64,000 bases of DNA from Tubulanus polymorphus (GCF_964204645.1 NC_134026.1:27376150-27440149), one strand, 5' to 3'. Positions 25,782 through 63,861 are shown, counted from the stretch's first letter. Notes: generated by a model from the letters alone, not told the origin. Program-made: numbers and translations.

Positions 25782-28700
25782 CTATAACATAGGTCGATTA
25801 CTCGATGTTAGTTCATCGTCCTCCATATCTGAGTTATCGGCACTCATTTGTTCCGATTCTTCTTGTTTTTTCTTAGCTGTTGCCATTTCAGCCGCGTGTC
25901 TTTTTCGCCATTTTGTTCGTCGATTTTGAAACCACACCTGAAAGATAAGAGTACGCGGTCTGATAAAAATAAACCGAGAACTTTTAATTCATGCTATCAA
26001 TTATTTCCATATCTGATCGAAAACTCAACAAATTTGATGAAATTTTGCAAGTGTAATGAACAACAGATAATTATGGCAGAAGAATTCCATCGTCTTACTC
26101 GTACAAAAGCAGTATGGAGATAAGAATGATAATTTTGCGGCCGGCTTAGCTGGAGGCAATCCGGGCAATGTTCCGATAAGGTTGTAACAATGTCTAATTA
26201 TTGCCGATTCATGCTATACTCAGTAGCTACAAATCCGCGTTTCGTTTACTATTAACGTTATCAACAACGATCTACTGTTGACACGACGGGCAAAATTGCA
26301 GCAAATTTCTATTGTTATGTGTCATCTCGTTTTCCATTCGCAAATGGGCTGCTAACTATCGCGGGATTCAAGATGCATATCGGACCGCCATGGACGACAC
26401 GGCATAATCCCACAATACCATCAATCAAGTCAAACAAACTAAACGACATGCGAGTCCTAAATAAATCCGACCAAATGCTTACTGGGCACGATTTCGGTTT
26501 CTAAATTAGTTATAAAAAGATATAGCCTTGTCTATTCATTTAGAATTTGGCTTGACCTTTATGGCACGACACCATAATAACAAATTTCTCATCCAAAGTA
26601 ATTGATCTTTAATGACCTAGGATGAATGATTCCAACTGTTTGAAAATGTCCTGATCAATACACGGCACCAATGTGGTGATAGACGTTGTCGATAATTTGC
26701 AAAACGAGGAAACAGCAAAACAGCATTTTTAGGAGTAAATATGAGTAAATCTGTAACTGGGTGGAATTTGAGTTTGCAGTAGGGTTGGTACTAGTGATTT
26801 TTATCCAGTCTGCTATGTAATAGGTGATATAATATGCGATTGATCGTCACCGTTTTACATTGCATTTGTTTTTTAAAATTAATTTTTGATCCCTAATAAT
26901 CGAAGAAGCAATAACTGGGTAACATGACTCGAGAGATCGGGGCGTATACAAGGCAATTCGGAATTGAATTTATAGTTCCCCACACAGGTGTCAAGAGTGA
27001 AACATTGGGGAGCAAATTAAATTTGCCAGTGCTGTGACGGGAACGCAATTATTGCCAATAATCCCGGAATTAGACAAATTGTAGATTCAAGCTCAGTTAC
27101 TAATACCAAATTTCATGAGATGCGTCGTTCGTGGCACCAGATAATAAAAGACTTTGATAATGGCTCGAGATAAGACTTAATCCGAGAAAAGGAAACAAGA
27201 AAGCGACGTGCATGGTATTGGGCTGGCAGATGAGGGGAGGAAGCAAACGGATCAGAGTGATGAATTGATATCTAATGAAGCGTAAAATAACTGAACACGA
27301 AGCTGTCTGTAAAGAAAGCAAAATGAGGTTCCAATCTTGGCGCTGTTAGAGTAATATGCATTATTAGTGAAGTGAGAGACAATAAAATCTACATGAAGAA
27401 TACCGAACTCTCAGTAAGCTGTAATTATTTCACACTGGAACTATACGTCAGCATTAGACATGAATTATCAACGAATGCGCTTTAAGTTAGGTTGGCATGA
27501 TCGACCACCACCGAAGTTGTACAAACAATGACTTGCTAAGTGTTCAGATGTGGAATGACTTACGTCTTCAAAAAAGAAGAACATGGTGTTCAGCTGTTCG
27601 GATAAAAATTCCAGATCCGATGCAGATGGATGAACAACGGGTTCCCACCTGTCTGTGGTTGTAAGGGCCCCTTGCTACTCCCAACCGATTTCCATCAATA
27701 ACACGTGATGGGCTTGTTTAGATACATCGCCCAGTTAAAAGGGTTTTTATTTCGATGAGAATGCTCTTATTGCGTGTTGTTTATTATGCCAGGCGCGAGG
27801 AAAAATGATGTTTGTTGCCAACTAAGCGAGATGTTAATGAAGTCTCTTCTTGAGTGTTTGCGTTCAAATGTCAGCCGAATATATTCATCACAGATGGCAT
27901 AAAATGAAGTAATCTCTGTTCTATTCAACATCATATAATATCTAACAATGATAAGTTATCGTTTGTTGAAATCGAGTGTTCCATTCTCAACATGATACAA
28001 ATCATAATGAACCAGAAAGTTATCCCTTATCATCTTGTATTTACAGTTTGATAATGCAACAAATATTGGGAATTTTGTTCGCTTGAGTTAGTCGATTTGA
28101 ATACAAAACAGCGTATCAACTGCTCTAGGAGACTTTGAAACCGATTACATTTAAAAACTTGTAGGCGGGTTACTTCAAAGCGTTTGACCATGAATTTGAT
28201 CCCAATATATGTCAGTTGTACACGGGGTCAAGGGTGCTTCAGAGTAAGTGAAAGAAGACATCGTCACAACTGATAAATCGTCCAAGCGACTTATCTACTT
28301 AAACCTCAGTGGCGCCACAATATTTCAAAAGAATTAAAGGTATCTACATCACGAAACAAGCGGCGTGGCAAAATATTCTTCATACACACCTTAACTTGAC
28401 TTTCAGACATGCCTAATGCATATGCCAATCTGGCTCTTTCCGGTCCAGCCAAATATTTCGTCTGTTCAAATGTCTTTTCTAATGCAAATATCTGCTGACC
28501 AGAAAATGTCGGTCTCGTGTGTTTCCGTTTACCATCTTTATCAATCGTTACGTTGTTTTGTGAATCTATAAAGAAAAATTTGAAAATATTCAAAAAGAAA
28601 TATTCTACAAAAAACCAATCATCTTTAAATAACCTAGAATAGTTCAAGAAGCGCTAAACTCGGGTCCAATACTAGCTATCAAGTTATTATCAGTAAAATC

Positions 28701-31700
28701 GTTGTTTCTGTGATTCATGTTAACTAAACTTTGTTTTTATGCTTGTCCTGAAAGCTTCGATTTTTCCATCAAATGTCGTATTACAAATAATTTGCGACAA
28801 TGTTTTCGCGTTCTTCGATCATTGGAAAAGTGACAGGCCTTCGCTGATAATTGTATTCCAGTGATTAGTGCAGAATCATACCCTTATGCCTTCGATTCGA
28901 TATGAAATTGGTTTTTCGATTATAGACAGAAAGATAGTGTTACGCCGATGTCAATCTTATCATTGGCAGTATTTCGAACGTAATTTTCCCAGCATATGAT
29001 CATTGGTTGGATATTCACTTCTGGTAATTTGCAGCTATGATTGTAAGCGAAAGTCGATCTAACTGTGACTTGTGACGAGATTGGTTTCAAATAAGCAGAT
29101 CAACAAGACGAATTGGATTCGTGGATTTAGCGTTTGAAAACCGATCGGTTTGACATCGACCTGCCTGCCCTCCGTACATTTTACTGTCACAATTCATACA
29201 TTATCTAATCGAGACTCGTCAAATTCAAAATTTGACGAGAACCCGTGGAATTAGGTTGAGCCAAGGCTTACAATGCGTGAAAAATGTTACACCCGACAAT
29301 GATGACGAAGCAAGCTGCGAACATATTGTCGAAATTAAAACGACACATTATCAATCATCATACACAGAAAACGCTAAAGACACATTCTGTTTTATAAGAT
29401 GCAAAACGAACGCCATTTATCCGTAATCCGATAAATTAGCCTGACTGATCATTAATTTGATTCGTAAGTACATTACACATTCAAATACCGAATTATTTTT
29501 CCGATCCTGGCAGCCTAAAACAGATGCATGTATAGCTATCAGTAATCCCCAAACAGCAATCAATTGAACGACTGAATAAGAACATTAAAGCACCAACAAC
29601 TGCATAATGTCGTCGACCATTTTACAGAGAGGCAGACATGAATATCAAGTATTTCATCAGACTTCGCTCAGAGTCACGGGTTAAAAATACGAATTCGTCA
29701 TGTTCATCCTCGCCGATTTTTATTCATTGTTTAGTAAACCACGACTCATACGGTGTTATCAAAAGAAAAGTAAATTGATATCTTAATGGCAAATTAATTC
29801 AATAACCGGCCTAAAAATCATGAAATAAAGGTTTTTGATATAATGGAAACAGCTAAGAATATTCATCTATGATTATCTTCAATCATCATTAATAAGAATT
29901 AACGATTTGTGTTTAAATGTATTTTTCATTTCGTTTCAAAAATATATACCATGATGCATTATACCATGTTGAAAAGGTTGAAAAGCAAAATTCTTTGCAC
30001 TAATATTTCATTAATCCTCTTTCCTTTGCAATTTAGCTTTACTATAATGGCTTTATATTTGTCTTATAGCAGTAACACATGTTGCTATCGTGCCAATTGG
30101 CTAAATTGAGCCAGCTCCTTTTCGCGGTGGTACATGAACATAGTAAAAAATAATCGTCTCTTGAAAACGTTTGATGCTCACTTCTTCCGGCGTCGGGTCT
30201 ACTTCTTCAAATTCTCGGTCAAGCCTGCTTTGTTTAGTGGGCACTGATTAAACTAATAAATTAGTAATCCACAGTTAGAAGCAGCCGATTTATTGTAAAC
30301 ACTCCCAACAAGATCGTCCGACATAGCAAAAAACGAGAGGACTTCGCGCTAAATATTATATCGAGTCAACCTTTTTAAACCTTACAAAAAGAAATACGGT
30401 TGATTCGAATTCGAAGTATTTCTGTGAGTTGTAATATTCTGGTATACTTTCATTTGTTTTGACTGGAGTTTAAAAGAAGATCGAGCCTCGTGCGGAATCA
30501 ATGATATTTATATCATCGACTTTATTAAGCCACTTTACGTCATTATTTCGTTGAAATCGGTCAATCATCAGTCGAAAAAATAGGTGGCATATACAATATC
30601 GCCTGAATACGATCTAGATGAATTTAAATTCGAAAAGTATCGAAGAAAATATTCGCCACTGAAAAATGTAAATGGCAGGATATTTCATTAAAATAGTCTC
30701 GTAAGAACATTTATTTCCAAGGAGATTTTAGAAAGCAATTCATTTGATCGTCATACGGGACACGTTTAAATGCGGTAATATACATTGTTTCCATTGAGAT
30801 ACCGAGTCAAATTGAACGCCATTTGATATAAAGATATATGTATTTCCTACTTAACGGTACAATTACGCGAAAATTCGCAAATGTCCAATTTTATGCCTCT
30901 ATGAACAAATGGTCTTCCATAGATGGAACAGAAAGAAGGAAAGGTGAACGAGCGCTATTGTAATAAAGGATTGACAGCTTTAATCGTGTGACTTATGAAG
31001 ATTTATGGTTGTTTAATGTCCCTTATATTGTGCTTATGTTACTCTAATACATGCAGGTCAATTCCTACGCTTAATACGTCCATTTTGTTTGTCACTTTAA
31101 TTTATGAATCGTTTATACGTATTTTGTATTCAGAAATTTTCACGTTTGAGAAAAAATTAATCACTTACTTAAAGGCACCCCCGTATCATGACTGGGTGAA
31201 TTAACGGTACAAATCTATTTCAAGTTAAGTAGATATTGGCTACAGTTTTTTTTAAAATATAATCATAGGGATATAACCGCAGATCTTGTATGTATTGTGG
31301 AAGAAAGGAGCTTTTTACTTAATTTGCCTCATGTCTGGGTTCTCTCTCTGGACCAGTCATACTTTGAAACTTTAAAGTGTTGTCGGTCTGACACAAAACA
31401 TTTACCGGCGTGCCGTGCCATTCATCGACGAAAATTTAAACGGCCAAATTACACCAGCTTTTTCAGAATTTTTTCCAAGGTGCGACAATGACCCATTCTA
31501 CGTGAGCTGTCGAGCTCGGATAATAAACGAGCGACGCTTTCAGAAGCTTCAGGTGTTTTTAGAAGTCTATTCCGGACATTCCTTTATAACCCAGGTTCCC
31601 ATTGTGTTACTGAACATCTTTCATAATTCTTCCCCTCTAAGACACCTTGTCGCCTATGATAAATGACTCGTCCTAATGAAGCCGTGTCTTTTCTGCTTAC

Positions 31701-32805
31701 ATGCAAAACATGTAGCGACGAATCAGATGAGTAGATGCCGTTCTGCGAGGCAGTATCAATCATCAGGTAATTGACATGATTAAATGGGTCTTCCTGAGAA
31801 CCAACAATACACACAAAACCGTTAAACTACATTAATTGTTTTTACACCATTTCGGTTATCTTCATGAAATATATGAATCTTTTTACTAATGGTTAATTTT
31901 TTTCAAAGATATACTTCAAATATAATCATCGTACAATAGTGACTTCCTGAAGATTCTGAAGAAATTTGAGTCAAACTCTATGAGTTCTTTTTATTTGATG
32001 AATACTATTAACATTCCACGATTAATATGGTTATCAAAAAGAATATATATCTAAATGAAGTATGTTTAAGAATATTAAATTAAGTATGTTTACCATGTTT
32101 AAGAATGCATCAAACTTTAAAGAAAGTGACCCAGATGATATATTTATCAAACTCAATTTTTGTTGAAAATTCGGATTCAACACGATCAAAGAAAAAATGA
32201 TATGTTTATTCTTATGCCCAAAAATAAACACGTTCTGCTGGTTTATTTCTAAGTGCGAAAAATGAAACATTATTAGGCAAGTCAGTGTTACATTATTAAT
32301 TCTTTGTTTACTTACACTGACTCTGCGGTCTCCACGTACCCTGTACAAGTCCTGGCCAGTATATGGGCGTCCTTCCTGGTAAATCTGCCAACGGCTTTGG
32401 AAATCTTGCTTGCGGGTTGAAATACATTCCAGCGTTGATCCTCGGAAGTCCAGTAAATTGTCCCATATGTCCGGCGAGGTGCGGAAAATTGAGGTACGGT
32501 TTATTGAGAATGTCGGATATACCATGTGGTGTGGAAGGAATGCTATTTAAGTTAATGGGAGACATAGATGATTTCAGAGACGCCGCAGACTGCGAATATG
32601 ACGGTACCGAAGTTCCAGGTATTTTCGTTTCAGTCATGTTATGTAACGCCGCCAGTGGGGGGTTACTTAAAACAAATGCACTTTGGCGCGAAGCCGCGTC
32701 CATATTTGACAGCAGTGAGGCCATAGTCGTCGGACTGGGGTTTTGGTAGCCCCCTGAACTAGTATTCGACGCGCCTTCCGACGTCACGGCGCAGTAATCC
32801 AACAT
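25782..32805 (-). CDS. Nkx6: NK6-class homeobox transcription factor, 3 exons
   Basis: Exons 32805-32316, 28565-28390 and 25937-25782. Motifs [11 protein letters not shown], eh1/TN motif [15 protein letters not shown], and homeodomain [64 protein letters not shown]. Confidence 0.97.
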
Positions 32806-34143
32806 GAGTGTTTTTCCAGTTAGTACCAGGCGGATAACAGCTGTAAGGAAGACAGGTCACCAATGTGCAAGAACTTAAGATGAGAGTGCCATTTGAACGA
32901 TCTTGTTTTAGTGGCTTGTTCGCCTGATTGACGATACTCATTCATCATTTTGCTATTCCGATTGACGACACATTGATATGGCGAACCTAAACGACCTGTC
33001 GCAGGGAACGGCAATTTCATTGGTCGGCAGTGGCGGGGTTGGAACTTAAGATGTGTTAAACACTCTGCAATTGGTCGAAATCAATACGCGCGATAACGAT
33101 AATAATGAAACTTATTTAGTGGAAAAGGCATGTGGCTTGTGAATCATTAGTGCCGTTTTAGTATTCATTGCTACGTTAAACCACCAACAAAATAGTCATT
33201 CTACGAATCTGAAAGCATAAAAATGGCATACTTTACATCGAACCGCCTGAAGAATATCAATAAGTCGCCGTTGATCCGACGAAATATTCAGCGTCCGGTG
33301 CATACTTACATCGGTGTCTGAAACTGTTAATTTTCGGAAAATTGAAACACGTCGAGCCCCACGCCCCGATCTATAAACCTGTCACAAAAACTTTAATGGA
33401 TCACCGATTAATTCTTCTTATACATAACGACTATCAGTGGCAATTAAACTAAACAGGCTTTCTTTTTACGGTATCATCGATGCCATTGTCGATGTGCATT
33501 TCACTTAGAATTCATTTTCTCGAAATTTTATCAATCGTGCATCATTCAATAACATCTTATTCTAAAGTAAAATTGTCAACCCTTTCCTTCGTATTCCCCG
33601 TGTAGCGCCAAACATCTAATGAAAGAGTCCATCATAACCCACGTGGTATACAATAAAATTTTGGGAACTTTTTGGCATTTATTATCATACAGTTTAGAAC
33701 GCCAATAAAAAAGCTTACGATTATTTTTACAATCCGTTATACCACTATTTTATAAGGCTAGATGAACCTATTCAAGTAAGTACATCGCATTAAGTGTGTG
33801 AATTTCCCCGGTTTAATGACACTCCAATTAATTCGATAGGCTTTATTACCAGTAACTCCTGCTCGTCCCGTATTTTAATCAAGGCCTACTTTGCCAATGG
33901 GAAATTTAATTCAAAACCATCTTACCAAAGTAGCGTACTCTCTGGCGGCCAGAATATAGCGACCTTTTATGTTTTGGATATTCTTTTGGGAGTAAGATGT
34001 CTGCAAGTGAAATCCGAATAGTCCATTGACAAATAATGACGTCAATGCCCACTCGACAAACTATAGCATAGACCAGTAAGAAATCAGGCGAGTCATGTCG
34101 AAACTGTGTAACTTTTTGATGATGCTTTTAAGTGAGGGTTGAC

Positions 34144-43100: not shown

Positions 43101-44776
43101 ATCGTTTATGTTTTTGTAAATTCAGCACGCGTTTCTCGCAGGGCGCGGATCGGCCCGGCGGGGTCGGCCAGATTTTGGGCTGCCAACGATGAAAATGCGA
43201 AGCATATAATCATACGAAAACTTTTGAAAAAAAGTATTTCAGGCATTTTCGTTATAATAACCGAGCAGAATTAGTGAAATTTTTCATCGTGTCTAAACGG
43301 TAGAAAAATATCATCTCAGTCGAACAAGAAAAAGTGTCAAAAATTGATTATCGCCGGCAAGCGATGAATTATTGCTATGTCAAATGTCACGTAGGTCAAA
43401 CGCAAAGATTTCATTTGCCAATCGCTTTTGTGTTTGAGAAGCAATCGCCGAGTGCAATTATTATTCCGTCTCGTATACCGATGATGCAGATGCAGGTCGC
43501 AAAAAAGCGCATAAAGCGGGCTATTTTTCCATTCGAGTATTGTAACTGTGTCGTCGTAGAGACCCTCATTCGTCATCGGGACTGACGTTTATAGCGGGGA
43601 ATTCTGCCTCCCATTTCTCGTACCCTCTGTATGCCCGTGAAGGCAAAGTCTTTGTGGTGTACTGTTATTGATGAGTTCTGAGGCCATATAAGTGCGTAAC
43701 TGTGACATCGATGATTTAACTAGACATTCATTTAATCATGACACAATGACGGATCGACGACGGCGCCCGATTGAAACGTTTACGTGTCCCATCTTCATCA
43801 CCAGACGAAAGGTTCTCTACACCGTAGAATGACGTGAATATGAAATGAATTAACCCACGATGAAATATGACAACAGTTCTTTTTTCAATTTTCTTTCAAA
43901 CAAGCGACAAAAAGTATCCTCAATCTTAGGAACGTAGAGCAAATCGTCCTTGATTGAGATAACCATAGTTGCTGAATATCGAAGCAAAAATTTTTGTAAA
44001 CTATTTCAATGGGGTTAAGAATGTTCAGCATGAAGACGGGGAAGCTATTTCAGTTTATGGTAGTCGTTGCCCAGCGATGACTTCGTCAAATCGTCCGCCA
44101 TCTATCGCATTTTATGCTTAAACTTCAAGTCATCGCGCTATGTTTGGTACGCAAATACAGTTACTCAAGCATGCCGAATTCTATAAATGCCTTCATTCCC
44201 AGAGGAGCGAGGGCCACTTTGCCTATTGATAAACAATTTCATAAACACCTCATTTTCATTGCTGAAGTTAGAATCGTATGATTAATCCATCACAGCTTAT
44301 TCAGTGTAGGAATCATTTTCAAAACCACAACATAAAGCAGATGTAAGATGAGCGGTCCCTCCCTTTAATTATATAAACTGCATTGATGTATGTTTTTCTT
44401 TTTTCTTTTACTATATACGACTGATCAGGTAACATTGACAACGAGTGACTGGTAACATGAGCTGGTTGACGAATCGTGTAACATGTAAAATGTTGTTCAT
44501 ATGAAACAGTAATGAATTAACTGATTGATCTATAATATGTTCTGCATTTCTTGGTAGGAATAATGTATATCACGCCATGTTTTTTATTTGTTATATGGTA
44601 TTCAGGTTATGGATTTGTGTTTAATCACGAAAACCTAATCATATTCAGTACGTGTTATAAAACGCCGAAAATAACGACAAAGCGGAAAGGTTTCTTAAGC
44701 TCCTTATGGAATCTGTCGCGCAAGGAAATCTCTCCCGGTTAAAGAAAGGAGTTTGCAAAACGTCACGGCAGCGGGT

Positions 44777-46918
44777 ATGCGGCTAGTTGATAAGAATATG
44801 GCAATGGTGTATTTTCGTGAAATATGGAAAGTTTTAGTTTTATTGCTATTGATGATTTTGCTCGTGGATTATTCGAAGGAAATCATCATACCAGACGTCA
44901 CCGATGAACCGTTTACGATTGCGGGTGATTTGATTTTAGGAGTTGTAAAATCAATTGGGCAAAATGATAAGAGAACGTCCGCGTGTAATGGAAAGGTCTC
45001 TATAGGAGGAGTGATAACTGTTGAAATGTTTTCATTCGCCATTGCTCAAGTAAACGCTAACAAGTCGTTGCTTCCTGGTATCAAATTAGGTATGCGTTTT
45101 TTCGATACTTGTGGTAGTGAACGTATGGCTGTTGCTCGGCCGATGCAGCTACTTGATGCGATGTGCCCGCAAAATAATGCCCGAACATACGGTCAACTCG
45201 TGGGCGCTATCGGAGATGGCCGATCCAAATATGTGGTCCACGAAGCGCGAATATTGCGGCAATTTTCTTTACCAGTGATGTCCACAGCGGCAACATCCGA
45301 CGAATTAAGCGACCAAAAAGCATTTCCATATTTCTTGAGAACAGCTCCTCCCGATGAATTTCAGACAACTGTTATGGTAGATATCTTGACGCAGTTCAAC
45401 TGGAGTTACTTTTCTATGTTGTATGTCGATGATTCCTACGGTATTTTTGCCTTGAATAATCTTTACCATCGTTCGAAACAAAAAGGTATCTGCATGGCCT
45501 ACAGTAAATCGATTGGTGATCTGACAACAGACGATGAATACGAAGATATCATAAAAACTCTTTGGAAACAAAAACGGGCAAGAGTGATAATCTCGTTTCT
45601 TTCTGGAAAGCACTTGTTTCGCCTTCTGCATAAACTAAAAAAATTCTTGGAAGTCAAGAAGGCAGAAAGCAATCATTTCATTTGGATTGGTAGTGATGCA
45701 TTCAGAAGTCCCTCTTCATGGGAGGATAAAGAAATGGGCGTCGGTTCCATTTATATCGATCTTGATTTTAAGACTATACACGAGAAATCGTTCTACCATT
45801 ATTTCGGACTACTGACTTATGAAAATATCACAAATCCGTGGAAGGATATTTTAGTTGAATATTTGTTCAATTGTACGTGGAACTCGTCTCCAAACTGGAG
45901 ATATTTACACTGTGAAAAATTCCAGAACGTGTCTTTTAATGAAAGCGAACGATTTAAAGATATAGCGAACGATGCGAGTTCGAAATTTGCCACGACACAT
46001 GATTGCATTTTTGCATTCGCATTTGCAATCCAAGAAATGATTTCGCAAAGATGTCCCAATGTATCGTCGGGTGACACGAACACGCTTGAGGTCTGCATCC
46101 ACGGTCACTTATTGTACGACTATCTCTTAAATGTATCATTTACGGGTTTAGCTGGACCGATTGCGTTTGACAGTGTTGGTAATGGAATGACTGGTTATAA
46201 GATATCTCAGTTTCAATACAACCCCGCTGATGGATTCCGCCATGTTGTTATCGGTAACTGGGATCGGGCACGCGAAAGTATTCATATAGAAATGAATAAG
46301 ATGAATTGGAACGCAATAACAAATACAGCCCCGCGGTCTTACTGTTCAGAACCATGTCCACCGGGGCATTACAGTATAACACTTGACGTTCACTGTTGTT
46401 GGAAATGTCAGCCTTGTCGTAGTAACGAAATCACTAACTTCAATAAAACTGATTGTGTCCAATGCAAAGAATTTAGCTGGCCTGACCAAAATACATTTCT
46501 AGATTGCGTGGAGATTGCAGCCGTGGCACTGAATGTCAGTCATCCAGTGGGTATCACTCTGATCGTCCTAGTGACTGCTGGACTAGTGATTGATATATTG
46601 ATAGTATCAGTATATATAAGATACAGGCACGAGCGTTTGATTAAGGCGGCAAGTCGTGAACTCAGTTTTGTGACGCTTTTCGGAACATCTATTAGTTTTC
46701 TACTGGTGTTGGTTCTTCTTGCTAAACCGAGCAGTATCACCTGTAGTATCCATAGAATCGGTTTCAACGTCAGCTATTCGATCATTTACTGCCCTTTACT
46801 CGTAAAAACCAATAGAATATATCGCATATTTTCGGCTGGAAAACGGGGTTTGTCCCAGATTCGATACATTAGTGGAAACTTCCAGATGTTCGCTACAACA
46901 GCACTCATTACCATACAG
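44777..46918 (+). CDS. Class C GPCR (mGluR-like) 5' exon A: signal peptide, Venus flytrap, Cys-rich domain, TM1 to mid-TM4; no private terminal exon
   Basis: Uninterrupted ORF with LLPGIKLG..DTC, ATSDELSD..FPYFLRTAPPD, WIGSDA, CSEPC..CCWKC, LIKAASRELS and LLVKTNRIYRIF. It ends at a phase-0 donor ATACAG/GTAATG. The start could be a nearby downstream ATG. Confidence 0.85.
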
Positions 46919-47843
46919 GTAATGCATGTCATCAATCGCATGTCTTCTTCTCTGCCATTACAGATTTAACAATGTCTATTTTACGTTATGAAAGGAAATT
47001 TAGCATTCATTAATGTTTCATTTCACGAATATCAACCATAAAGCGTGGAGTTAAAAATGGCAACAGATTTGGCAATTAGATTAATTCCATCGGCACACAT
47101 CATACGTGTTGTTCAATATTGCATTATGTTAGGATGTAGATTTGTCGCTGTGTTCAGTGGTCTGGGTGCTGCTTTTCCTGTTTTTGTTACATACAAAGGC
47201 CTTTATATAAGATGATATTTATGAAATGACATTTTCTAGTTTGGACGTTGAAATCGACGAAACAAATAGTACAACATGATACGTATAACGCCTTTTTTGT
47301 TAAATTTTCTTTGTCACATTAAGAGATAATTTAGATAAGCCTTAAGGAGGAAAATCGGATTTTCGCCCGTGTTTAGTTGTTTTTAGGTAATTTGCATGAA
47401 ACACTAATTATAGACGGAACTAACTAAAATGAAAAAGGAATTCCTGTTCGAAAACTCGACCATCTTCAATTAGCTTAGACGCCTCCGTACGAAATATAAT
47501 CATTCCAATGGTGCTAAAAAATGCTTTGAACAGCGAGATAAAATGTATCAGTGACAAGTTCATTACTGAGAATTACTGAGGAAAAGAAAGTTTATCTTTT
47601 CGACTTTCATTAGCGAGGTGACACTGATCGAATATTTCTTTATTGTATCCCCGAGATATTCATGTGATCTGCAAATTCATCTAATTAGGCGAAAAACCGT
47701 TGGGTATCTTACGCGCATTTAGAAACAAAAGTCTTTGATTGGCCACACCCGTATTGACATTTTCTGACGCAATCGAACGAGCGCTGATTTTATAAATCAG
47801 GAATCCACCTGATACCGGTAGTTGCATTTGCAGCAAGCTTACA

Positions 47844-50800
47844 ATGGAACAGTTAGTTTTGCTTCTAACCATTGTATTAGTTTTTTTATTTAGTGACGTA
47901 ACATGTATCTATGTTCCTGATGTCGGTAATGACACATTCGAAATAAATGGTGACGTTATTTTGGGTGTCGTTAAATCTATCGGCCGATCAAAAAATACAT
48001 CCACGAATTTATGTACAGGAGATTATTCGTTACGACGCTTGATTGAGTTAGAACAAATTGTATTCATGGTCGACAACATAAACAAAGATCCATCGATGCT
48101 CCACGGACTTAGTCTTGGCTTACGAATTCTCGATACGTGCAGGAGCGAAAGACTTGCTGTTTCTAGATCCTTACAGGCTGTCAATACGGAATATTTTAGC
48201 AGTGGAATGGACCTACTGGCACCTTTGATCGGGGTACTAGGAGATAGTTGGTCTCGATATGTAGTTCTCGAATCTCGTATTTTACAGCAATATTACGTTC
48301 CGGTTATTAGTTCATCCGCGACATCCGATGAATTGAGCGATCGAAATGATTTTCCTTTCTTTATAAGACCGGTTCCACCGGATAAATATCAAACCGAAGC
48401 AATGTTGGATATTATGGAATATTTCAACTGGACGTATGTATCGATGTTGTACGAGAGTGATACGTATGGCATAAACGCAATGACCCATGTTTACCGTCAG
48501 ACTAAGAAAAGAGGGATGTGCCTAGCGTATGTGAAGGCAATAAGTTCATCGGATATGACTGATGATGAATATGAAGACATAGCTAAAGGTCTATATGACA
48601 AAAAGGAAGCATCAATCATAATTTCATTTTTGCCCAATTCGGCCGCTAACAAAGTCATTGAAAAACTCCAAGCGTATACATTAGGCAGGAATCATTTTGT
48701 ATGGCTTGGAAGCGACGCTTTTTCCATCTGGAGACAGTTCTCCTCGATATCCATGGGGTCAGTTTATATCCGGCTTGATTTGAATTCGGCTTCACGGGAT
48801 AGCTTTGGTGAGTACTTTCTTTCGCGGACTTATGGTGATCTGACCAGCCCCTGGAAAGAAGCCTTAACGGAACTGGCATTCAATTGCAGTTTTCAAGCCA
48901 ATACCTGCAATAATCATAAAGATAGAAAATACAACGAAAGCATATTAAATCTTGACCAAACAAGCTACAGACTTAAGGGTAATTCCACCCGGTATGCTAA
49001 AACGTACGATGAGATATATACATTTGCACGTGCATTGCATCGCCTTTTAGAGGATAAGTGTAAAAACATTACCGATAAAAACCTCTTGATGAAATGCACC
49101 AGAGAACATCTAAAACGTGGTGGTATCTACGACTTCCTACTCACGACGTCGTTTCAGGGTCTCGCTGAAAAAGTAACGTTTGACAGCAACGGAGATGGCA
49201 TGGCAAATTATAAGATATTACAATATACGGAAAACGGTTCGACAAGGATTGGTACTTGGAATAGAAAAACTAGGAAACTGACAATAGACAAAATTGCAAT
49301 ATTTTGGAATAGAACTAATACTCCAGAGTCAGTTTGCACTAATTATTTGTGTGGAGCAAACCAATATAAGATAACATTACAGGTTCCATGTTGTTGGAAA
49401 TGTCATACTTGCCGAAATAACGAATATGTCAACGGATCCGAATGCATCCCATGTGATGTTTTTACCTGGCCTCACCAAGTAACGTTCAAATTTTGTGTTC
49501 CGATTCAACCGACATATTTGAATATTTTCCATACCGTTGGCGCAACTTTGATATTCATTTCAGTGATAGGATTCATAGGAAACGTGTCTATATTTGCAAT
49601 TTATGTTAAATATCGTGCAGAACGCCTGGTCAAAGCATCCAGCAAGGAACTTAGCTTTATAACTTTGGCCGGGTGTTTGTTTAGCTTCTTGGTCACAGTA
49701 CTAATGGTTTTGCGACCGAATCGCGCCCTGTGTTACTCACAAAGACTGTCGTTTAATACAATTTACACAGTTATATATGCGCCGTTATTAACGAAAACAA
49801 TGCGTATTTATCGTATTTTCTCTGGAAGTAAAAGGGGAACCGCGAAATTAAGGTTTATCCGTACAAAGCATCAGTTGATCATTACTGGAATAATGATAAC
49901 CATACAGGTAAGCTCTTCGTAAAATCATTAATCAAGGATTACCAAAATTAGCAATTTTCAATTGGTAATTTCGTTAATTTTTGCTGATTTTTTCATTTTC
50001 CCTCAGCCTTTCAGCCTCCGGCATGAAAACCCACTTTTACCAATTCTCCGTGGATTTTACGTTCGAAAATTAGCCATTTATTTACATCGATTAATTGATG
50101 TTCAAATTACCTCCGTTAGCCATTCCATCAAAATAGAAACGAACCTAACTAAAAGAGTAAAGGCCGCATTTCTTTTGATCATGAAGTTTTTGTGCGAATA
50201 TGTTTTCAATCGTTAGAGCATTCATGGAATGATAGAAAGGAACGCGATGACATTTTGTGACATCAAAGCAACCGGAGGCTTGTTGTAATTCACGTTAACC
50301 ATGTACTTCGATACATTTATATATATATATATATATATATATACGTAAAAAGTTGGGTTTTTTCTCGAGGCATCAAAACATAGTCAACAGAAAATGTCTT
50401 GTTTACGGGGATTTCAAATGTTTTAGCTAGGTTTCATCGATCTTTTTTTTGAATCTAGATAAAATGTCATTATTTTACGCTGTTTTTACCCTGGTGAATT
50501 TTCGATCATCAAATGTAAAAAGATACCCAATTTTCAAAGCTATGAAGCGCGAAGTACCCCCATCATCTCAAACATTTCATATTGATTGTGCCGCTATTTT
50601 CTAGCTATTTTCGTCAGAAATCATTCGAATGTAATATCTACAGATAAAAAGTTAATACCAGCTATAAAACATATTTCATTCTAGGCGAACGTACCAAAAA
50701 AACAACAATTTTACCCTTATGATATTTTATGATCAGAGGGATTTGTATACAATTAATCAAACGTAAGCCGATATCACGAGTATAAGACCTTGTTGTTCTT

Positions 50801-51835
50801 GTTACAAACATCAATGGTCTTAGTAAAGTCAGAAGCTCTTGTCATCTTTGAGAAGTGTTTTCGAAAACCGCCTCATTCAATCGCGGTGTTTTTCATTCGT
50901 TCTTTAAGATGATTTAGATGATGATCGGCTCGTACCAACATTTTAATACCTTTTTTATATGTATATAATATACAATATTGTTTTTGAGTAAAGTTGGGGA
51001 CATTGATTAGATTCATAGTACGCCTTTTAACTCCGGGCAAATATGGACATATGCACTCTGTTGTGTTGTTATTGTTTGAAGACGAATCTATTCCATTATT
51101 TTACATTAGAACATTATTGAACACCTTCAATATTAGAATTGGAACATAATGGATATCTTTATCTTTTTGTCCGAATATACGGCTGGGAGTGATCTCTAAA
51201 AAAATGTGAACGGCGCGTACGTTTATCTAAATTAATCGATGTTCTTTACAAAGAAAAGTTATTGATCATCGATCATGTTTATGTTTTAGGTAATCATAAC
51301 AGCGATTACAGCCATTTATTATCCGCCGAGAGAGAAACTGGAGATGCCCGTGAGGACGGAGCCATACGTTGAATTGCTGTGTGACCTTCCCGTCGTGGCG
51401 TTAACAGCGCCACTTTCCTATAATATACTGCTCGTCTTTATTTCGGCGATCTACGGCTATTTGACAAGACGTTTGCCAGAAAACTTTAACGAGTCACGTT
51501 ACATATTCCTGTCAGTCTGTTCAACATTATTCATCTGGATCGCATTTCTGCCGACTTATTTTTCAGCCGCAACAGCGATCCACCAAACGATGCTTTTGGC
51601 GTTATCCTTGCTTTTAAACTCGTTTGTAATTTTATTGTGTATATTTGTGACACGGGTTTATGCTTTATTATGCGTTGATACTTCAAATTTGTCTTATTTC
51701 AACACGATGACCACCGCTACGACGTCGAGGCGTTTTCCAACTAACGTCGTAGAACCAAGTGAATCTTTAAATGGAGAACGGTCTGGAATTTTTAACTTAT
51801 CGAGTTCATTAAACCAGTCCTCCAATGTAGAATGA
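47844..51835 (+). CDS. Class C GPCR (mGluR-like): 5' exon B (47844-49907) plus terminal exon (51290-51835, TM4 end to TM7 and tail)
   Basis: Same domain motifs as exon A. Phase-0 donor ATACAG/GTAAGC and acceptor TTTTAG/GTAATC. The terminal exon encodes VELLC, YNILL and TRRLPENFNESRYIF..IWIAFLPTYF. Confidence 0.92.
50319..50343. repeat. (TA)n microsatellite
   Basis: About 12 TA units read directly. Confidence 0.9.
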
Positions 51836-53328
51836 GATTTAAAGCAATAATTTTGAGAAAAAAAACTTAATTCAAAACAGACAGATAGTGCCTGTACCTT
51901 CGAGTCTGAGAATGTCATCCAATAAGCTGTTCCATACAAGTGTTATAGGCAGTAGTTTATCGTTAGATATAAATTTGTGCATTAGAATTAATACTATACT
52001 TGCGGCTCGCTAGTAAATTGCACCAAGAATTCTGTATTTTAGCATCGATTGTTGTTTAGGAACTGGTGTATCATATATCTGAATGTTTTGGATCGTCCGT
52101 AAACAGTGTATTTTGAAATTAAATCTAGTCATGTCAACGTATATTAATTACACGTTTCCATTATTTCGCCAGAAGGGCTTCGGTCGTTTCAGGAGGAACA
52201 TGGTTTATCTTGCGGCAATGAACTGACATTTTGCTCTGTACAATACGCTGAAGGCAACCATCAGAAATGTGTAATATATATAAATATATAAAACCAACAC
52301 GACGCTATAATCTAATATATCAAAGATTTATTCAGTATATACACGTAATTGTAAATCATTATAATTTTAAGTTGAAAGACTTTTCGAACAGTTTACATAT
52401 CTTTGATATTAAATCGCAGTCATTCCCGTATAACCAACAATAACCTGCATCATATAAGTAGTTGACCTCGTGCATAACTGCACCTACATCCGATGTAAAC
52501 TTAAAACTACTATCAGATTTTTGAAGCCACGATCAGATGTAGATTTACCGGTACTTCTTTGTAAGTAAGTCATATTGTGGCAGTGATAAGTTCAGAGCAG
52601 CCGAACTGGGTTAAGACATCAACAAATAAGTCGTCATATTACCTACGTACGTGGTCAGTAATTTTAGTCCAAATTTGTGCACTTCCAACATTTCCAACTT
52701 AAATTTTTTAGGGCAAGTCATCATTTGGATAAGATGTACACAAAATGATCGCCCAAGCTGTAACAAATTAAGCTAGTTCGACTGGACTTGGAAGATAATA
52801 GTGTCTTGAGATCATAAGGCATTTCTGGTTATGTGGAATGAATATCATTTGAAAAGATTCACCAAGTTGATATGTCATTTGGCTAACAATCAACTCGCAT
52901 TTTCTTATACTACATAATTTAGCACCTTAAATGATACATCGAATAAATACAAATAAGCCCATTCATTACTAATTAGAAGAAATAACAATTATCATCTAAG
53001 ATTTAATCAAATATTTGAAATAAAAAGACAAAATAGAAATAAAATGAAGACTTATCAGAATTCAGCTCATCTAGCAGTTAGCTTCATTGATATTATCTAA
53101 GAACACGAAAAATAAATGTAGTGTACAACTTTAACAAAGAAAATGTCAAACAATACCAATAATTTCCTAAGAGAATATAATGGAAATCAATGAAAATAAT
53201 CTTATGATTAAAAATAGACCATGCAAAGGAGGAAAAAGATGAACACAAAGAATGTGAATTGTCACAGGGAGAAATATCAGGGTTTTAAGAAATGAAGACT
53301 CAAACTGGAAGATTCTGCTGCCTCGTTA

Positions 53329-56300
53329 TCAGGTATAGCTGTGCACGTTGAGGAATTGAGATTTTTCCAATTCATCAATTCTCGATGATGAAGGAACACG
53401 ACTTAATGAAGGTCCCGGTATCATATGTATACGCTGTAGTCTGTGTAAATGTAATATAGTCGCAACAACAACCATAACAAAACATAGAAGCAGTACGTAT
53501 TGGTTCAAATATAAGGTTTTACTTTTCCATACTGACTTAGCATGTTGAAATTTTTGCTGCTGAATCTCCCTAATGAAAATAAACAAAACACATTAAGAAG
53601 GCGATTAAGTGGTAGATTGAAGAAACGACTGAAACTTATGAGATCATTTACCTGAGAGGAAAGTACCTAGTTCTGTAAAGAAGAGCACCGAGAGTCCACT
53701 GAACTTCTTTGCCATCAATAAGTTGCACTGAATTGAATTTATTGTAATTCCGTGGAAATTTAAAGCCCCCATGTAACACCTGGACTATCCATGCAGACTT
53801 GAAACATTGGAACCTGAAAAATGTTGACAAATAAAAAAAATAGTAAAAGCAAATAGTCTAATGAAGCTTATCCAACACCTGTGCAATATATCATTAACAA
53901 CACCTGTACAAACTGCCGCCACCCGAAGCCAGTTTCACTGTAGTAGGTTTATAATGATTACGAGTTCTAATTTTCTCAAAAATGGAAACCCAACACTACA
54001 TCATTTCATTGAAATATGAACTGTCAATGAATACGCCTATCCCAGTGAAACAATTAATGTGAGGAATGTTAAAAAAATATAATGTGCATTAGCAGTGAAC
54101 ATGTCATTGCATTTCTAATATATGATACAAATGATCAGTTCGGTCTTGAATTTAGTTTTGTGGAAGACAAAAAATCAACATGCAAATCTTTCTGATACCT
54201 TTTTAAGGTTATATAATGCTCATTAAAATGCTTCTCAATAGACTTGCGAAACCAATTTTCATTGTCCCTTGAAATTCATGAAATTATCCTCAATTACCGT
54301 ACGATTCATTACTGGACCCATCTCTATTTCTAATTCTAACACCATATTCAGGAGATTGAGAATATCGGTAAATACAATTCAAATTCTTATTCACTTAAAC
54401 AAAATTTTATTTGCACAAGGTACAGTACTGGTTAGTCTGCTTTTGTGAATATATAAATGATTGATAAATTACTTACTGAAACCTAGCTGTATCAGCCTTC
54501 GGAAACAACCGTTTCCTATACCAGGCCTCTAGCACTGGCCACTTTGTAGTGCAATAATCCTTAAAAGGCAAACTAAGTACATGTACATACCAATAAAAAT
54601 TTAATTTGATTCAATTTCAATTTTGAACACTCTCTACTAACTTTAGCTGATTTGATAAATTTAGCATAATTGTAATGCCCAGCCATACGTAAGAGATCAT
54701 CCATTGTGTAGAAGTATTCTGAAAATCCATAGAATTCTGTAGATTCAAAGTCAATCTCAGGCTGATACACTCCATTCATAGAACAGATATTCGACGAGCA
54801 AGTTCCTGTGCTATTCAATAAAGGTCTCAATTTTTGTTGGCAACTGATGTAATCTCCAGAGCCTTTTAAATGGTAGATTTTTCTTTTGAGATTCACCACT
54901 TGCTCCAAGTTGACTGGGAGACATGGATCAAATATTGGGGAGCTTCTGGAGCTACCAATGAATACACGTGTGCCATTTTCAATTACTGTCAATCTACAAA
55001 TAGATAAATAAATGTACATTGTCACCTGTATTTGCAAATTCATCAGCAATCCATATCAAAGCTTACTTTGCTTGAACAGCTTCATTGATGATCAGTTCTT
55101 CATATCTCTGTCTGGCCGAATTGGCACCAAACCCCAAGAAAGTAGTTACATACACCCTGTAGTTGTGGTCATCATCAGAATTTTTACAGCCCAAATTGAA
55201 ATCTGCTATGAGGTTCTTGTTTACAATGGGCTAAAAAAGAATTCGTATATTTCATAGCAAAGAAAATACTAGAATATGCAAAAGGTATAAAATAAACCGG
55301 TTATCGAACAAACCTGGTCAGATCCAACTGATTTTGGAATTTCAAAAGCTATCTGGACTGATCCTCCACCCATGTCAATAATGCCAACAGTTCTTTTGCG
55401 TCTGTGTTTACCAGTGTCAGGTGAGTGCATCATAACTTCAGTTTCTGAAATTGAAATTTTTAATGTTGGTTTAGATGTGTTTGTTAAGTACGAAAATATT
55501 ACAAAACTTATTTCACTGAATCAAGCGAATCAAGTCTCAATATCAAATGTTGATCAAAGGTTAAGGATAAATCCATGCGTTTAAAAGCCATAATTCCAGA
55601 TACAATAGCAAAATACAGTCAACCCTGCAAAAGTCATCATCGAATTAATCGTATCATCACATCTCTCGAATGATTATTTTGGTCCCCATTTTTTTCTTCT
55701 TTAAACCTTATCAAATTAAAAATTATGCTTATAACTTGTACTTCATGAGTCCTATTTTCACTTAAGTCGTATGAATTTTAGAAGCCAAATCTTCTGATTC
55801 CATTCATAAAACCTCGCGTAAGTCGTAGCCCGTATCCCAGCAGCAGATAAAAATACACTAAAATATTGTCTGAGTAAGTGTTTAAACAATAACAATGTAA
55901 CATTTTCGTGATGTTGTCTGCGTGGTGCACATGGCAGCTTTAATTGATTGATTGAGGCTAGATTTCAGCGATATAGGATCTGCACTGTCAGCTCAGTATA
56001 CGACCGGGAACATGGTGAACCATGCTGGAATCTGAGCGTCGTATATATTGTATTTTCACGGGTTATTCGTATAAAACCACAACTTATAGATAACTCATAA
56101 AAATAAGACTTACACGTGACTCGTACAACAACACGTAAGTCGTAGAAAAATCGTCAGTCCCGAGGGCTACGACTTATGCAGGGTTGACTGTATGAGTGCA
56201 TTGATTTTTGGAGAGAAGTGCTGCATAAGTATAGGTTTTAGCAGAAAAGTGTTTACTGTCAGCTGTGATACACGTAACTGAAGTAGGCCTAACAGGTTAA

Positions 56301-57744
56301 TCAACTCGACACAGAACACGATCAGTTGTCAATACAGTATGATAACAGTCATAACAGCCACAGCAATAGACAAAAGAATACCAGTAAGTTGAGTTCATAA
56401 TAAAAGTTTAAATCAAAATCATCCTGATATCTATAGCTGATCCTTAGCAAACAGAAATTAGGTCTATAGTGACCAAGAGTAAAAAACCTTCTTGCACATA
56501 GAAACAAAAAAGTTTTTTATGATTCTTACCATTTTCCTCAGTACTACATGGTTCTGAAGAAAAAAATCATTTAAAAAATCTTACCAGTTACAATGATTAA
56601 ACACGATAAGAAATCAATCACCAAGCAAGCAAGTGGATTGAAACAGATAGCTTAAACATGCCACTATTTCATTTCATACATTACCATGTTCAGGTCGTGA
56701 GCCTAAGGTGGATTTAACATGCTATTAACTAGTAGTTTGAAATCTGATATCAAAGATTCATTGCCTTATGAAGGGAAAAAACGTAAGGATAAGGAAATTT
56801 TCTTAAAGTTAAAAAGATTACAAATATGACCACAAAATTTAACTCACCTCCTTCATGATGAAATCGACCTAGAACATTATTTGTAGCAATCCACGCATAA
56901 ACTCCTTCCTGTTTACCACTAATAATCTCTACATGTTCATCGGTAAAAAGGAAATCAAAATTCATCTTAATTTCCAGTCGAACATTTTCCATTATTTTCT
57001 GCTGAGCACTGAAATAATAGAGAAATCCCATTACAAGTGACAGTATGTATGTATCATTTCTATCATTACTAAGCACATTTTTGATAGAATATTTGTATTC
57101 GAACTTACCTCTCTGAGATCATTCTCATACCAGCAGTAGCCAGCACATAAACTGGTGTTTCCCTATGCTTAGATTTAGGTACATGATTCGCAGCGTAAGT
57201 GAGCAATGGGCGAATATATTGACCGACTTCTGCGGGATTCTTGCTGAAACTAGATAGTCCTACAAAACAGACACCACATTTTCCTTAAAACATGTTTTTG
57301 TTTTCCAGTGAGAATACCAACAGCTATTATAGGCTACAAACCTGGGTTCACTTTTTTCACTACAGGCTGGAAGTCTTTATCTACTACTTGGTCAATATTT
57401 AATAAATCCTTAGGATTTCCATCATGTGTAGGCCAGAAATAGACAAAGATTCTACTACCACTGCTCCCAGCATCGACAACAATTCCATAATGCTGATTAG
57501 GATTATCAAGGTCAGTTGGCCGAAGTGTTCCTGTCTTTTTCTTATATGAATGTTTATGGCCTGGAGCCAAGTGTTTGAATTGAGCCGTAAAATCAAATCT
57601 GTAGATGACGATCATGAATAAGACCATGCCCATAGCTACTGTAGCCAAGAAGACTATTGGCGTCCTACCGTTACATCTCCAACCATTCATTATTGAAGAA
57701 CATCGAATATACCATGACTCCGATAACAATTTCTTATCAACCAT
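53329..57744 (-). CDS. ENTPD4: Ectonucleoside triphosphate diphosphohydrolase 4/7-like (Golgi/lysosomal apyrase), multi-exon
   Basis: N-terminal TM, ACR1 YGIVVDAGSSGSR, ATAGMR, IISGKQEGVYAW, DMGGGSVQ, LGFGAN, FYGFSEYFY, QWTLGALLYRTRYFPLR and a C-terminal TM. ENTPD4 versus ENTPD7 cannot be resolved. Confidence 0.92.
55616..56190. mobile_element. Tc1/mariner-pogo-type MITE in an ENTPD4 intron
   Basis: TA-CAGTCAACCCTGCA(A)AAGTC ... GACTT(A)TGCAGGGTTGACTG-TA. TA target duplication and internal TAAGTCGTA repeats. Confidence 0.85.
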
Positions 57745-58371
57745 GGATCTGAAACATTTGTCAGATGACATTCAATCAGACATATAAGAACAATAGGTCC
57801 TACCTTCATTGAAATAAATTAAAATGAATGGTAGAGAGCCTTGAGTGGCTAATCTACTACAATGACTATGACAAATATTCACCGTGTTGAAGGAAGCATG
57901 TTGTTCTTATTAAATCAGACTTCTTCAAAATCAATCATGAGATTCGGGTTAGGACAGGGGCAGGGGGACGCGATGCTTCGATACTCAAACGAAATCGATC
58001 GTGTCGTAGTAGTAGTAAGGCCAACCTTAAAACCTTCTCCTCAGTCGAATCCAGCTGCTGATGAATCTCCTGCCCTCATTTTGACACCTTAACAACCAAA
58101 CACTACACTGTCACCACATTTTCATTCATCGTGCCGTGTTGATCCTTGGTTTCAAGTTAAAACTTGACGTGTACCCGGAAGTAAATTGGTGTCGTAAATC
58201 AATGGGAAAATATAAGATTTTCTACAGTAATTTGAAAACAATCGAAATTTTTATTCAATAAATTGTATCTATCTTTAAAGAATGTTATATATGCATTATG
58301 AATTTTTGAAAAATTAATATTTCTCAAAGATTTGTCCATTAATAACGTAAAGTGGTCGGTGTAATTCAATC

Positions 58372-61182: not shown

Positions 61183-62178
61183 TCAGCTATTTTTCGGTTC
61201 ATTCAATTCTGGCTGCGTTGATTCGTTTATGGAATGTAAGCCAACATGGTTCTCAGAAACAGAATTCTTCAAATGGTTTCCACCGGATTCTGTTTCTTTG
61301 ACGTCTATGACATGAATTCGGTTTCGTCCCCTGCGGGCCTGTTTCACGGTTCCAGAAGTGGGTTGTCTCGGAAGACTCTGAGCTTCGCTTTGTTCTACCT
61401 CCAGGCGTTTTTCCTTCAGTTTAGCAGTGGATTGGGCGTACGAGTAAAATAGAGCGAAATTATTCACTATAATGGGAACAGTTAATGCTATGATAAGCAC
61501 ACCAGAACCAGCGCATAGGGCGCCGACCAATTTTCCGTAAGCAGTAACCGGGGTAACATCTCCGTACCCGACCGTTGTTATTGTAATCAATGCCCACCAA
61601 AATGCTGCCGGTATACTCGAGTACTTAGGGTTATATTTGTGTTCCGCATAAAATCCCAGGGAGGCAAATATAACAACGGCTATCACTAATATCACGACCA
61701 ATAATAGTAATTCTCTCAGACTTGCCCCGAGAGTGTGTAGCAAAATCTTTAAAGCCCTGAACTGTTTAGCCAACGAAAATATCCGCAAAATACGAGACAC
61801 TTTGAATACCAGGAGTATATCAATGATAGTTGGTGTCACTGTTTTATTGGGACACTGAACTAGGAGCACCAGTCCCAAATAGTAAGGTACTATCGACAGA
61901 GCTTCGATAATACCAAACGGTGATATGATATACTTGAGCCGATGCGGCGCCACCACAATCTTTGTCACAAATTCTATCAAGAAGATTACGTTAACCAAAT
62001 TATCAATGATAAACAGTGCCTTCATTGGTACCGTATCATCTAAGATATGTATATCTCCACAACTTCCTCCACCGTCCGTTGAGTTTTTATCGTATGTTAC
62101 TCCCAGCTCAGGTACTGTCTCCAGACAAAATACGATTATGGAAATCGTGATCAGTACGATAGTCAGCCAGGCATAAGC
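61183..62178 (-). CDS. Voltage-gated K+ channel, Shaw/Kv3-like; last coding exon only (S1-S6 and tail)
   Basis: Acceptor TTTTTCAG at 62179, then ISIIVFCLET, S4 FKVSRILRIF, ASLREL, pore FWWALITITTVGYGD and S6 ALTVPIIVNNFALFY. T1-domain exons were not found in the window. Confidence 0.9.
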   Translation of the reverse strand, partial: AYAWLTIVLITISIIVFCLETVPELGVTYDKNSTDGGGSCGDIHILDDTVPMKALFIIDNLVNVIFLIEFVTKIVVAPHRLKYIISPFGIIEALSIVPYYLGLVLLVQCPNKTVTPTIIDILLVFKVSRILRIFSLAKQFRALKILLHTLGASLRELLLLVVILVIAVVIFASLGFYAEHKYNPKYSSIPAAFWWALITITTVGYGDVTPVTAYGKLVGALCAGSGVLIIALTVPIIVNNFALFYSYAQSTAKLKEKRLEVEQSEAQSLPRQPTSGTVKQARRGRNRIHVIDVKETESGGNHLKNSVSENHVGLHSINESTQPELNEPKNS

Positions 62179-63861
62179 CTGAAAAATAAATCACACAAAA
62201 TCATAATCTGAAAATACAATGTATACCGGTATATGAAAATACAAAATTACCAATTGGAAAATAATCGCAAACAGAATAATTAACTGTGGCATTTTTTTCA
62301 AGATTAGTACGCTATAAATATAATGAGGGATTTTGGATTATTCAAATTCGACCTAAGTATGAATCATTTATGAATATAAACTGTATCTAGACCGCATTTA
62401 AACAATCATTCAGATAAAGTATGAAGTCGCACATGTTATACGACTCTGAACTCAAAAATGAGAGGACTTGAGAGAATCAACCATTTTGTAGTTTTCACCA
62501 GGTTTATTGACCAGTGAAAGTTGAATACCGCTTTGGATTTTTCTTCCAAGTTTTTCATTGATTGTTATGTTTTCGTGTATTTCACCTGGGCGACGGTACG
62601 CGATATATTGACAAAAATTCAGTTTTTCTATCGATTCTCCCAACGTAATAAGATATCATTTGAATATTCATAAGAACTTATAGCACAAATTCCATATCGA
62701 CATGTGTATATTCGAACAGACTGGATGGAGTTGATAAGGTATTACAGAGTTTTGCTGACTGTGTAGCTATGGCAACTTTCATCCTACCCGATACAACGTT
62801 GTCAAGTTGAAGCTTCAATTATAGCTATGTTTTGAATCACTTCAAATGTTTAAAATAACTGAAGAACTCGATAAGAGGGTACATTGAGAGACGCCTTCTT
62901 GAATGTCTATATTTAATACAGCACTCTATGCGGGACATCATCGGGATTTCCGGTGAAATTTCCATCAATAATATATGATTAAGCCAATTTCTTTTTTCTG
63001 AGGTGAAACATCGGCCGTTGTTCCATTGAACTATATACTTTTTCACACAAGTGAATCATTTTATGTTAATAGTTTCACGCATTTCTCATTTCGTCAATGA
63101 TACATATCGAAACATTTTCATAATTTATGCGAACGTAAACGTGATTCGGGCCATTTACATTTTAGAATCCCACTTATCATGAATTGTCTATTTTTGTTGG
63201 TCTCTTATCGAGAGGAGGGGTAGCCTTGTGCTACTTATCTTTTAGCTTTTTGACACCAAACCACATTACCAAGACAACATAATTACGGCACGAGCGTTTT
63301 CTGATGAAATCGGAAAAGTTATTGATCGCACATACGTTATGTATCGAAACAAATGGTGCTAATGCCACGCCACTTACACTGAATTTTCTAGTGGGTAGTT
63401 TTTTAAAACGTGTTTGTGAAGACATTGGTTATGTAAATGGCGTGACAGGATGAGCTTTTCATCTTTAGTTTCGCGATTTCACCCGAATCAAAATTAGATA
63501 GGTATTTTTGCGCACATATGAAGCTATCCGAATAATGAAAAAATACATGCTGCACAGAAAAAACTGCAAGTTTAAACTTGTGCAAAGAGCTCACGGCAAT
63601 TCTCACATGGTTTTTCTTTTTAAATTTTCTATAAGAAAAGATAAAGATGATTCCATGTAGAACAGAAGTTACATGCATTTAAAAATGTGCGAGCCAACGC
63701 CATTTAAAAGCAGTCAAGGTCAAGCTTAGATACATACCTTCGCCAATTTACTCATCTGGAAAATCAGAGGGATTTGTTTTTTGTGAGATGTTTTTATGAT
63801 ATTTAGAAAGTTCAAAAATTACAACATTTCCATCTTGATACTGATTTTTTGTTCGGTCGAG

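Follow-up and report, generated by a model that had tools for sequence, protein, structure and literature searches.

A Tubulanus polymorphus locus in which two class C GPCR first exons may share a single terminal exon

The joining of variable first exons to a constant tail is an established means by which receptor specificities are multiplied. In a 64,000-nucleotide stretch of the Tubulanus polymorphus genome (GCF_964204645.1 NC_134026.1:27376150-27440149; hereafter, the window), two class C GPCR first exons, A and B, stand in tandem ahead of one terminal exon, C, raising the question of what completes the receptor encoded by exon A. An earlier note on this DNA proposed that A and B are both spliced to C, giving two receptors with different ligand-binding domains and one signalling module. 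Here we assess that proposal from the exon anatomy, a search for a second terminal exon, the evolution of exon A, related loci and a second Tubulanus locus, and conclude that the two first exons, each with a putative promoter of its own, likely have a common terminal exon, an arrangement known from insect Gr39a and from UGT1A. The locus is organized as follows.

44656..44661, plus strand: TATAAA, putative core promoter of exon A by motif match, with ACGTG just 5' of it at 44650
44706..44786, plus strand: out-of-frame upstream open reading frame (26 codons), presumably within the leader of A, ending 5' of the ATG at 44798
44777..46918, plus strand: first exon A, encoding signal peptide, Venus flytrap, cysteine-rich domain and TM1 to mid-TM4; in-frame ATGs at 44777 and 44798; ends CAG/GTAATG
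46919..47843, plus strand: A-B gap of 925 bp, with an in-frame stop at 46967 and the promoter-like stretch of B at its 3' end
47738..47797, plus strand: putative promoter of B, with reverse CCAAT (47738), CACCC (47746), TGACG (47765) and TATAAAT (47791)
47844..49907, plus strand: first exon B, with the domain order of A and 42-44% identical to it; ends CAG/GTAAGC
49908..51289, plus strand: B-to-C intron of 1382 bp, GT..AG, with a TA microsatellite at 50318-50343
51290..51835, plus strand: sole terminal exon C, encoding the rest of TM4, ECL2 (Cys31), TM5-7 (NES at 67) and the C-tail

Exons A (714 codons) and B (688 codons) are open throughout, with no stop or frameshift in either, and end in ALITIQ and IMITIQ at phase-0 donors, ATACAG/GTAATG and ATACAG/GTAAGC, respectively. 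Exon C begins after TTTTAG at a phase-0 acceptor and closes with a stop at 51835, the nearest poly(A)-like signal being ATTAAA at 52118. The Pfam 7tm_3 domain is covered from position 1 to 129 by exon A, from 5 to 129 by exon B and from 130 to 249 by exon C; the segments in the first exons and in exon C are thus an exact complement in the same phase, and a complete seven-helix domain in a single polypeptide would arise only if the predicted A-C and B-C splices occur. Both first exons carry further attributes of a class C GPCR, with a Venus flytrap (ANF_receptor, 205 and 209 bits), a cysteine-rich domain (NCD3G; 49.3 bits in A, above the cut-off, and 31 bits with E 2e-7 in B, under the cut-off of 38.9) and an N-terminal hydrophobic stretch that, by hydropathy only, is a putative signal peptide (residues 20-38 in A, 4-22 in B). 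The nearest solved relatives are mGlu3/4/7/8 (E about 1e-90). Tandem paralogous first exons with same-phase donors lie before a single 3' exon, and no 3' exon is private to A, as in known variable-first-exon genes. The diverged first exons of the earlier note are confirmed, with their coordinates, common ATACAG/GTAA donor and, for exon A, an open frame despite its divergence.

The TATA-like elements of that note, at 44656 and 47791, are likewise present as motif matches; TATAAA occurs by chance in 10% of random 150-bp windows, or about 1% for both exons together. The element of exon B lies 53 bp 5' of its ATG, within the 110 bp upstream that also hold CCAAT-, CACCC- and TGACG-like motifs, these being motif matches only.

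The locus forms an island between two minus-strand genes, a homeodomain gene at 28309-32856, presumably Nkx6-like, and a GDA1/CD39 NTPDase gene at 54576-57771, with a voltage-gated potassium channel gene at 61186-62190 (minus strand). An intron of the NTPDase gene contains, at 55600-56200, a high-copy short repeat (summed depth 500-1400 versus about 35) that is probably a small mobile element. Elsewhere in the window, at 10391-12261, a 144-bp GC-rich tandem repeat in two opposite-orientation blocks (3.6 and 8.8 copies, 94-98% alike) yields long spurious open reading frames and apparently lies inside a TRPM-like channel gene (Pfam match at 15510-15950, under the cut-off).

A terminal exon belonging to A would be expected in the 925 bp between A and B, where tblastn found no TM4b-7 remnant (best E 1.4). 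A six-frame HMM search with stops read as X found none elsewhere in the 64-kb window (next-best iE 0.34), in agreement with the earlier claim that the gap is free of TM5-7 coding sequence and that exon C is the only terminal exon. A 21-nt match at 42767 (TAIYYPP), considered as a remnant of exon C, does not extend and is ascribed to chance. The gap also contains no AATAAA or ATTAAA, which is weak evidence, as 17% of 925-bp windows have neither, and no long inverted or direct repeats able to guide splicing were found. The possibility that an exon had been collapsed out of 46919-47843, which the earlier note wished to see excluded, was addressed with the public run X1, in which a single contig covers 44333-50306 at depth 36 with four substitutions and one 1-bp gap. 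Across the A-B gap this contig has no insertion, no joint and no listed loose end, and its depth equals that of the flanks, so that a collapsed exon is unlikely; the missing terminal exon was not recovered. X1 may be the source sample of the window, its contigs being a separate assembly, and the runs X2 and X3 carry X1 alleles; the three are therefore probably not independent sampling.

The position of the common donor, which the earlier note pointed out, is real but is the ancestral intron of the family rather than a peculiarity of this locus. More than half of the stored related proteins (93 of 174) are open reading frames that stop just after mid-TM4, in 92 of these 93 the next residue is Val, as expected from a GT donor, and metagenome loci show the mid-TM4 intron directly; a common donor is thus expected of any two paralogues. 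The donor 9-mer of A is identical to the mid-TM4 donor of a related locus (L005) and is without the +5 G that the donor of B has. Of 38 loci in related animals, 18 contain both halves, and a pair of first exons ahead of one second exon occurs in none. A spare first exon is present in none of the three loci that have at least 4 kb upstream. The single tandem pair among these loci (L020, 7878-18405) consists of two complete class C genes, each with its second exon; neither has a cysteine-rich domain match. First and second exons are thus paired one to one in the sampled related animals, and the feature that needs explanation is an exon A without one. Some stored proteins of 1800-2800 residues (P0034, P0053, P0067, P0076, P0109, P0123, P0127 and P0171) have three to five tandem flytraps before a single helix domain and no cysteine-rich domain. 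We rejected the idea that the multi-flytrap giants are fused exon arrays, given that nearly all are without a repeated TM1-4a, P0108 having three partial ones.

Exon A is old and strongly constrained. It is a sister of exon B (support 0.99) in a FastTree phylogeny of 136 first-exon sequences, comprising the two window exons and 134 of the 174 stored proteins, with partial, multi-flytrap and duplicate rows excluded. Between the two exons pS is 0.82 and pN 0.38, and four-fold sites are 29% identical (n=93), values at which silent sites are saturated and the exons anciently diverged. Exon A evolves no faster than exon B against any of seven outgroups, and retains 84 of 85 family-conserved residues, compared with 80 in B and a family median of 78. 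All 18 conserved TM1-4a positions are kept, including Cys656 of TM3, Lys677 and Arg680, the partners of which we take, from mGluR structure, to lie in the part encoded by exon C (TM5-7/ECL2). In neutral simulations (1000 runs per divergence, assuming 0.08 indels per substitution), the frame of exon A stays open in 32%, 9.6% and 0.6% of runs at divergences of 0.5%, 1% and 2%, respectively. The three substitutions that separate X1 from the window in exon A are all silent (p about 0.04). The conserved residues, open frame and silent polymorphisms together argue that exon A has functioned with a TM4b-7 half up to the present or to a very recent date.

In the main rival reading, A is a fresh orphan: an ordinary two-exon gene, the own terminal exon and poly(A) site of which were deleted very recently, and which is now silent, degraded by NMD or incidentally spliced to C, and will decay. 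We regard this as possible but rather unlikely. Every constraint signal in A, the three silent polymorphisms included, could predate such a deletion; in relatives each first exon retains a second exon, which also seems to hold at the second Tubulanus locus described below; and the NCBI model of A is truncated. The TM1-4a halves of A and B are 46% alike, against 43 +/- 6% expected from 227 pairs of like flytrap identity (68th percentile), so that nothing points to a prolonged co-adaptation with a single tail. X1 and the window have no substitutions over 45662-52097 (6.4 kb), compared with 10 in the 1277 bp upstream and 12 in the 1665 bp downstream (about 0.7-0.8%); within the tract there are a 1-bp gap at 50696 in X1 and one difference at 51255 in X2/X3. 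Either a deletion allele that spread recently or a coalescence that happens to be recent would produce this low diversity; the three silent polymorphisms of exon A lie 5' of the tract. Against an orphan, the deletion would have to be clean and remnant-free and to be as recent as about the last 1% of neutral divergence, in a pair whose silent sites are saturated. Furthermore, both haplotypes of the X1 sample appear to have the short gap and no exon in it, as the gap is at full depth whereas a bubble nearby splits to depths of 17.7 and 18.5.

The protein records raise another reading, that A is itself a truncated receptor of 723-730 residues made by read-through, with flytrap, cysteine-rich domain and three to four helices, which modulates or dimerizes with the B-C product in the manner of truncated GABAB1. 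It matches the only NCBI record of exon A, a 723-residue intron read-through protein at 44798-46966 that starts at the second ATG and was the single match when eight window sequences were looked up exactly. Class C truncated isoforms with dominant effects exist, as with GABAB1e (PMC2987798), and the AATAAA/ATTAAA hexamers of exon B (47942 and 48944) could terminate transcripts from A. However, A keeps its exact donor and the residues with presumed partners in TM5-7/ECL2, 92 of 93 related open reading frames carry the same kind of read-through tail as a by-product of gene calling, and the 16-residue tail of A is unrelated to that of B; we consider this reading improbable. The record could be explained by a lack of data or by intron retention like that of chelicerate sDscam, whose constant exon also receives splices from downstream cassettes, leaving upstream introns retained (PMC4835542). 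Protein searches, which are lossy, returned no A+C or B+C protein; one of them, made with a five-sequence alignment, gave seven proteins and no new nemertean paralogue, and missed P0028 and P0029 (below) although both were in its query. The RNA-like run X4 gave nothing on the receptor exons and matched the NTPDase gene only at under about 90% identity, and does not bear on expression.

A second locus on the same contig, outside the window, bears on how heads and tails are paired in this lineage. Its proteins P0028 and P0029 (XP_074640212.1 and XP_074640213.1, consecutive RefSeq accessions of T. polymorphus) have first exons that are 33% identical and second exons that are alike at 44 of 47 residues (94%), differing only at residues 4, 8 and 10; the P0029 record ends after residue 47 of the second exon. 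The first exons are not sisters, P0029 falling outside A, B, P0028 and P0036 in the tree. Among the 1596 pairs formed by 57 full-length relatives this is the only one with near-identical tails and divergent heads, in a library whose clustering at 50% would conceal many others. Residues 11-109 of this second exon are covered by a 297-base X1 contig at depth 76.6, about twice single-copy, which suggests two homogenized copies. Conversion or duplication of the tail exon alone is suggested by these data, very different TM1-4a halves appear, from their sequences, to be paired with one TM4b-7 sequence, and an exchange of tails among heads in the Tubulanus lineage is indicated. Each head seems to keep a tail at this locus. 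We propose that such a state offers a route to the A-B-C locus, by homogenization of tails and then loss of one copy.

The same locus lends something to the two weakest alternatives. A trans or long-distance junction of exon A with the terminal exon of another paralogous locus draws on the apparent interchangeability of second exons at the P0028/P0029 locus and on the trans-splicing reported for chelicerate sDscam (PMC9258826), but is very improbable with a suitable acceptor 4.4 kb downstream in cis and no other class C exon in the 64-kb window. An assembly artefact, by which the A-B gap lost a second, near-identical exon C through collapse, is just as hard to credit: near-identical second exons do occur in this genome and collapse in Logan contigs, as the 297-bp contig at depth 76.6 illustrates, but the X1 contig, at depth 36.3, spans the gap with nothing inserted, and exon C is covered by a contig of single-copy depth (32.2).

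We therefore favour, as the likely reading, two promoters and two first exons that share exon C. Promoter choice would determine which first exon is transcribed: transcripts from the putative promoter of A would run through exon B to the poly(A) site of C, and the cap-proximal donor of A would join the acceptor of C across a 4371-nt intron, while promoter B would give a B-C transcript. Counting against this scheme are the missing +5 G in the donor of A, the hexamers within exon B and the one-to-one pairing of exons in related animals. The predicted products are two mGluR-like class C receptors binding different amino acids. The arrangement could have originated by tandem duplication of a promoter together with the first exon behind it or, once the last exon belonging to A had become redundant, through loss of that exon. 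The anatomy, the constraint on A and the absence of a hidden exon all fit the earlier proposal; its notion of one signalling module is only partly right. TM5-7 and the C-tail would be common to both receptors, but ICL1, ICL2 and TM3 are encoded by the variable exons, so that coupling need not be identical. ICL2 is one of the principal sites at which mGluRs contact G proteins, and it is not the same in A and B.

The flytraps of A and B differ at the side-chain pocket and both keep the grip on the amino-acid backbone. In an alignment-based mapping through catfish mGlu1 (P0007), with mGlu1 residue numbers, all five backbone-binding residues (S165, T188, D208, Y236 and D318) are kept in A and B; K409 is lysine in A and arginine in B; and R78, the arginine that contacts the distal carboxylate and marks a glutamate receptor, is threonine in A and glutamate in B. 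With the backbone residues kept and the distal arginine replaced, A and B are predicted to be amino-acid sensors and not classic glutamate receptors. A comparable pattern has been reported for class IV mGluRs (PMC6307864).

More speculatively, and here we are tentative, the mid-TM4 intron of these ribbon-worm class C receptors may be a working hinge at which heads, each a flytrap with half a helix bundle, diversify while TM4b-7 tails are shared, as at the window locus, or homogenized, as for P0028/P0029. Such loci would belong to an old, selected system of amino-acid chemoreception by variable heads on a constant tail, convergent with insect Gr/Or genes; the helix bundles would be chimeric, and A and B might form heterodimers. 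Should the A-C splice prove real, nature would here have made a domain swap, showing that two TM1-4a halves with only 46% likeness can each fold and signal alongside a single TM4b-7 half. It would then also follow that gene prediction renders receptors of this kind as truncated proteins, and that first exons in excess within the class C clusters of invertebrates are worth counting again.

A class C GPCR that swaps its whole ligand-binding domain by variable first exons was not found in the literature searched, which covered few subscription papers, and searches for papers on this Tubulanus locus, on sharing in V2Rs and on conversion of TM exons found nothing on the A-B-C locus. Within class C, intron-poor mGluR-like GPCRs of marine invertebrates have the same domain order, two coding exons and a phase-0 TM4 intron; the relatives sampled have one terminal exon per first exon, in contrast to two first exons for one here. 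UGT1A, protocadherin and sDscam clusters contain nine or more variable exons each, unlike the two in Tubulanus, where, again unlike those systems, the split runs through a transmembrane helix and would give a chimeric helix bundle. They resemble the Tubulanus locus in that promoter-linked paralogous first exons set specificity ahead of a common 3' part (PMC3325998, PMC4835542). GABAB1a and GABAB1b are also two N-terminal forms of one class C gene made from separate promoters (PMC2987798); they differ only by sushi domains and the flytrap is common, whereas the Tubulanus locus would swap flytrap, cysteine-rich domain and TM1-4a.

The closest analogues are insect chemoreceptor genes with long alternative first exons. 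They stand nearer than the UGT1A and protocadherin genes to which the earlier note likened the locus, a looser likeness that partly holds, given two variable exons here and not an array. Insect chemoreceptors are ion channels, not class C GPCRs, and have no flytrap; their splicing has been shown and compared across species, whereas that of the Tubulanus locus is predicted. Long alternative first exons occur in Drosophila Gr23a, Gr28b, Gr39a, Or46a and Or69a and in Blattella Gr60a-m, as large tandem exons that have a donor only, the first acceptor being that of the shared 3' exon or exons (PMC2204066, PMC6175461). As described there, the shared 3' exons encode the conserved end of the helix bundle, as exon C does, and Gr23a, like the Tubulanus locus, has two large first exons.
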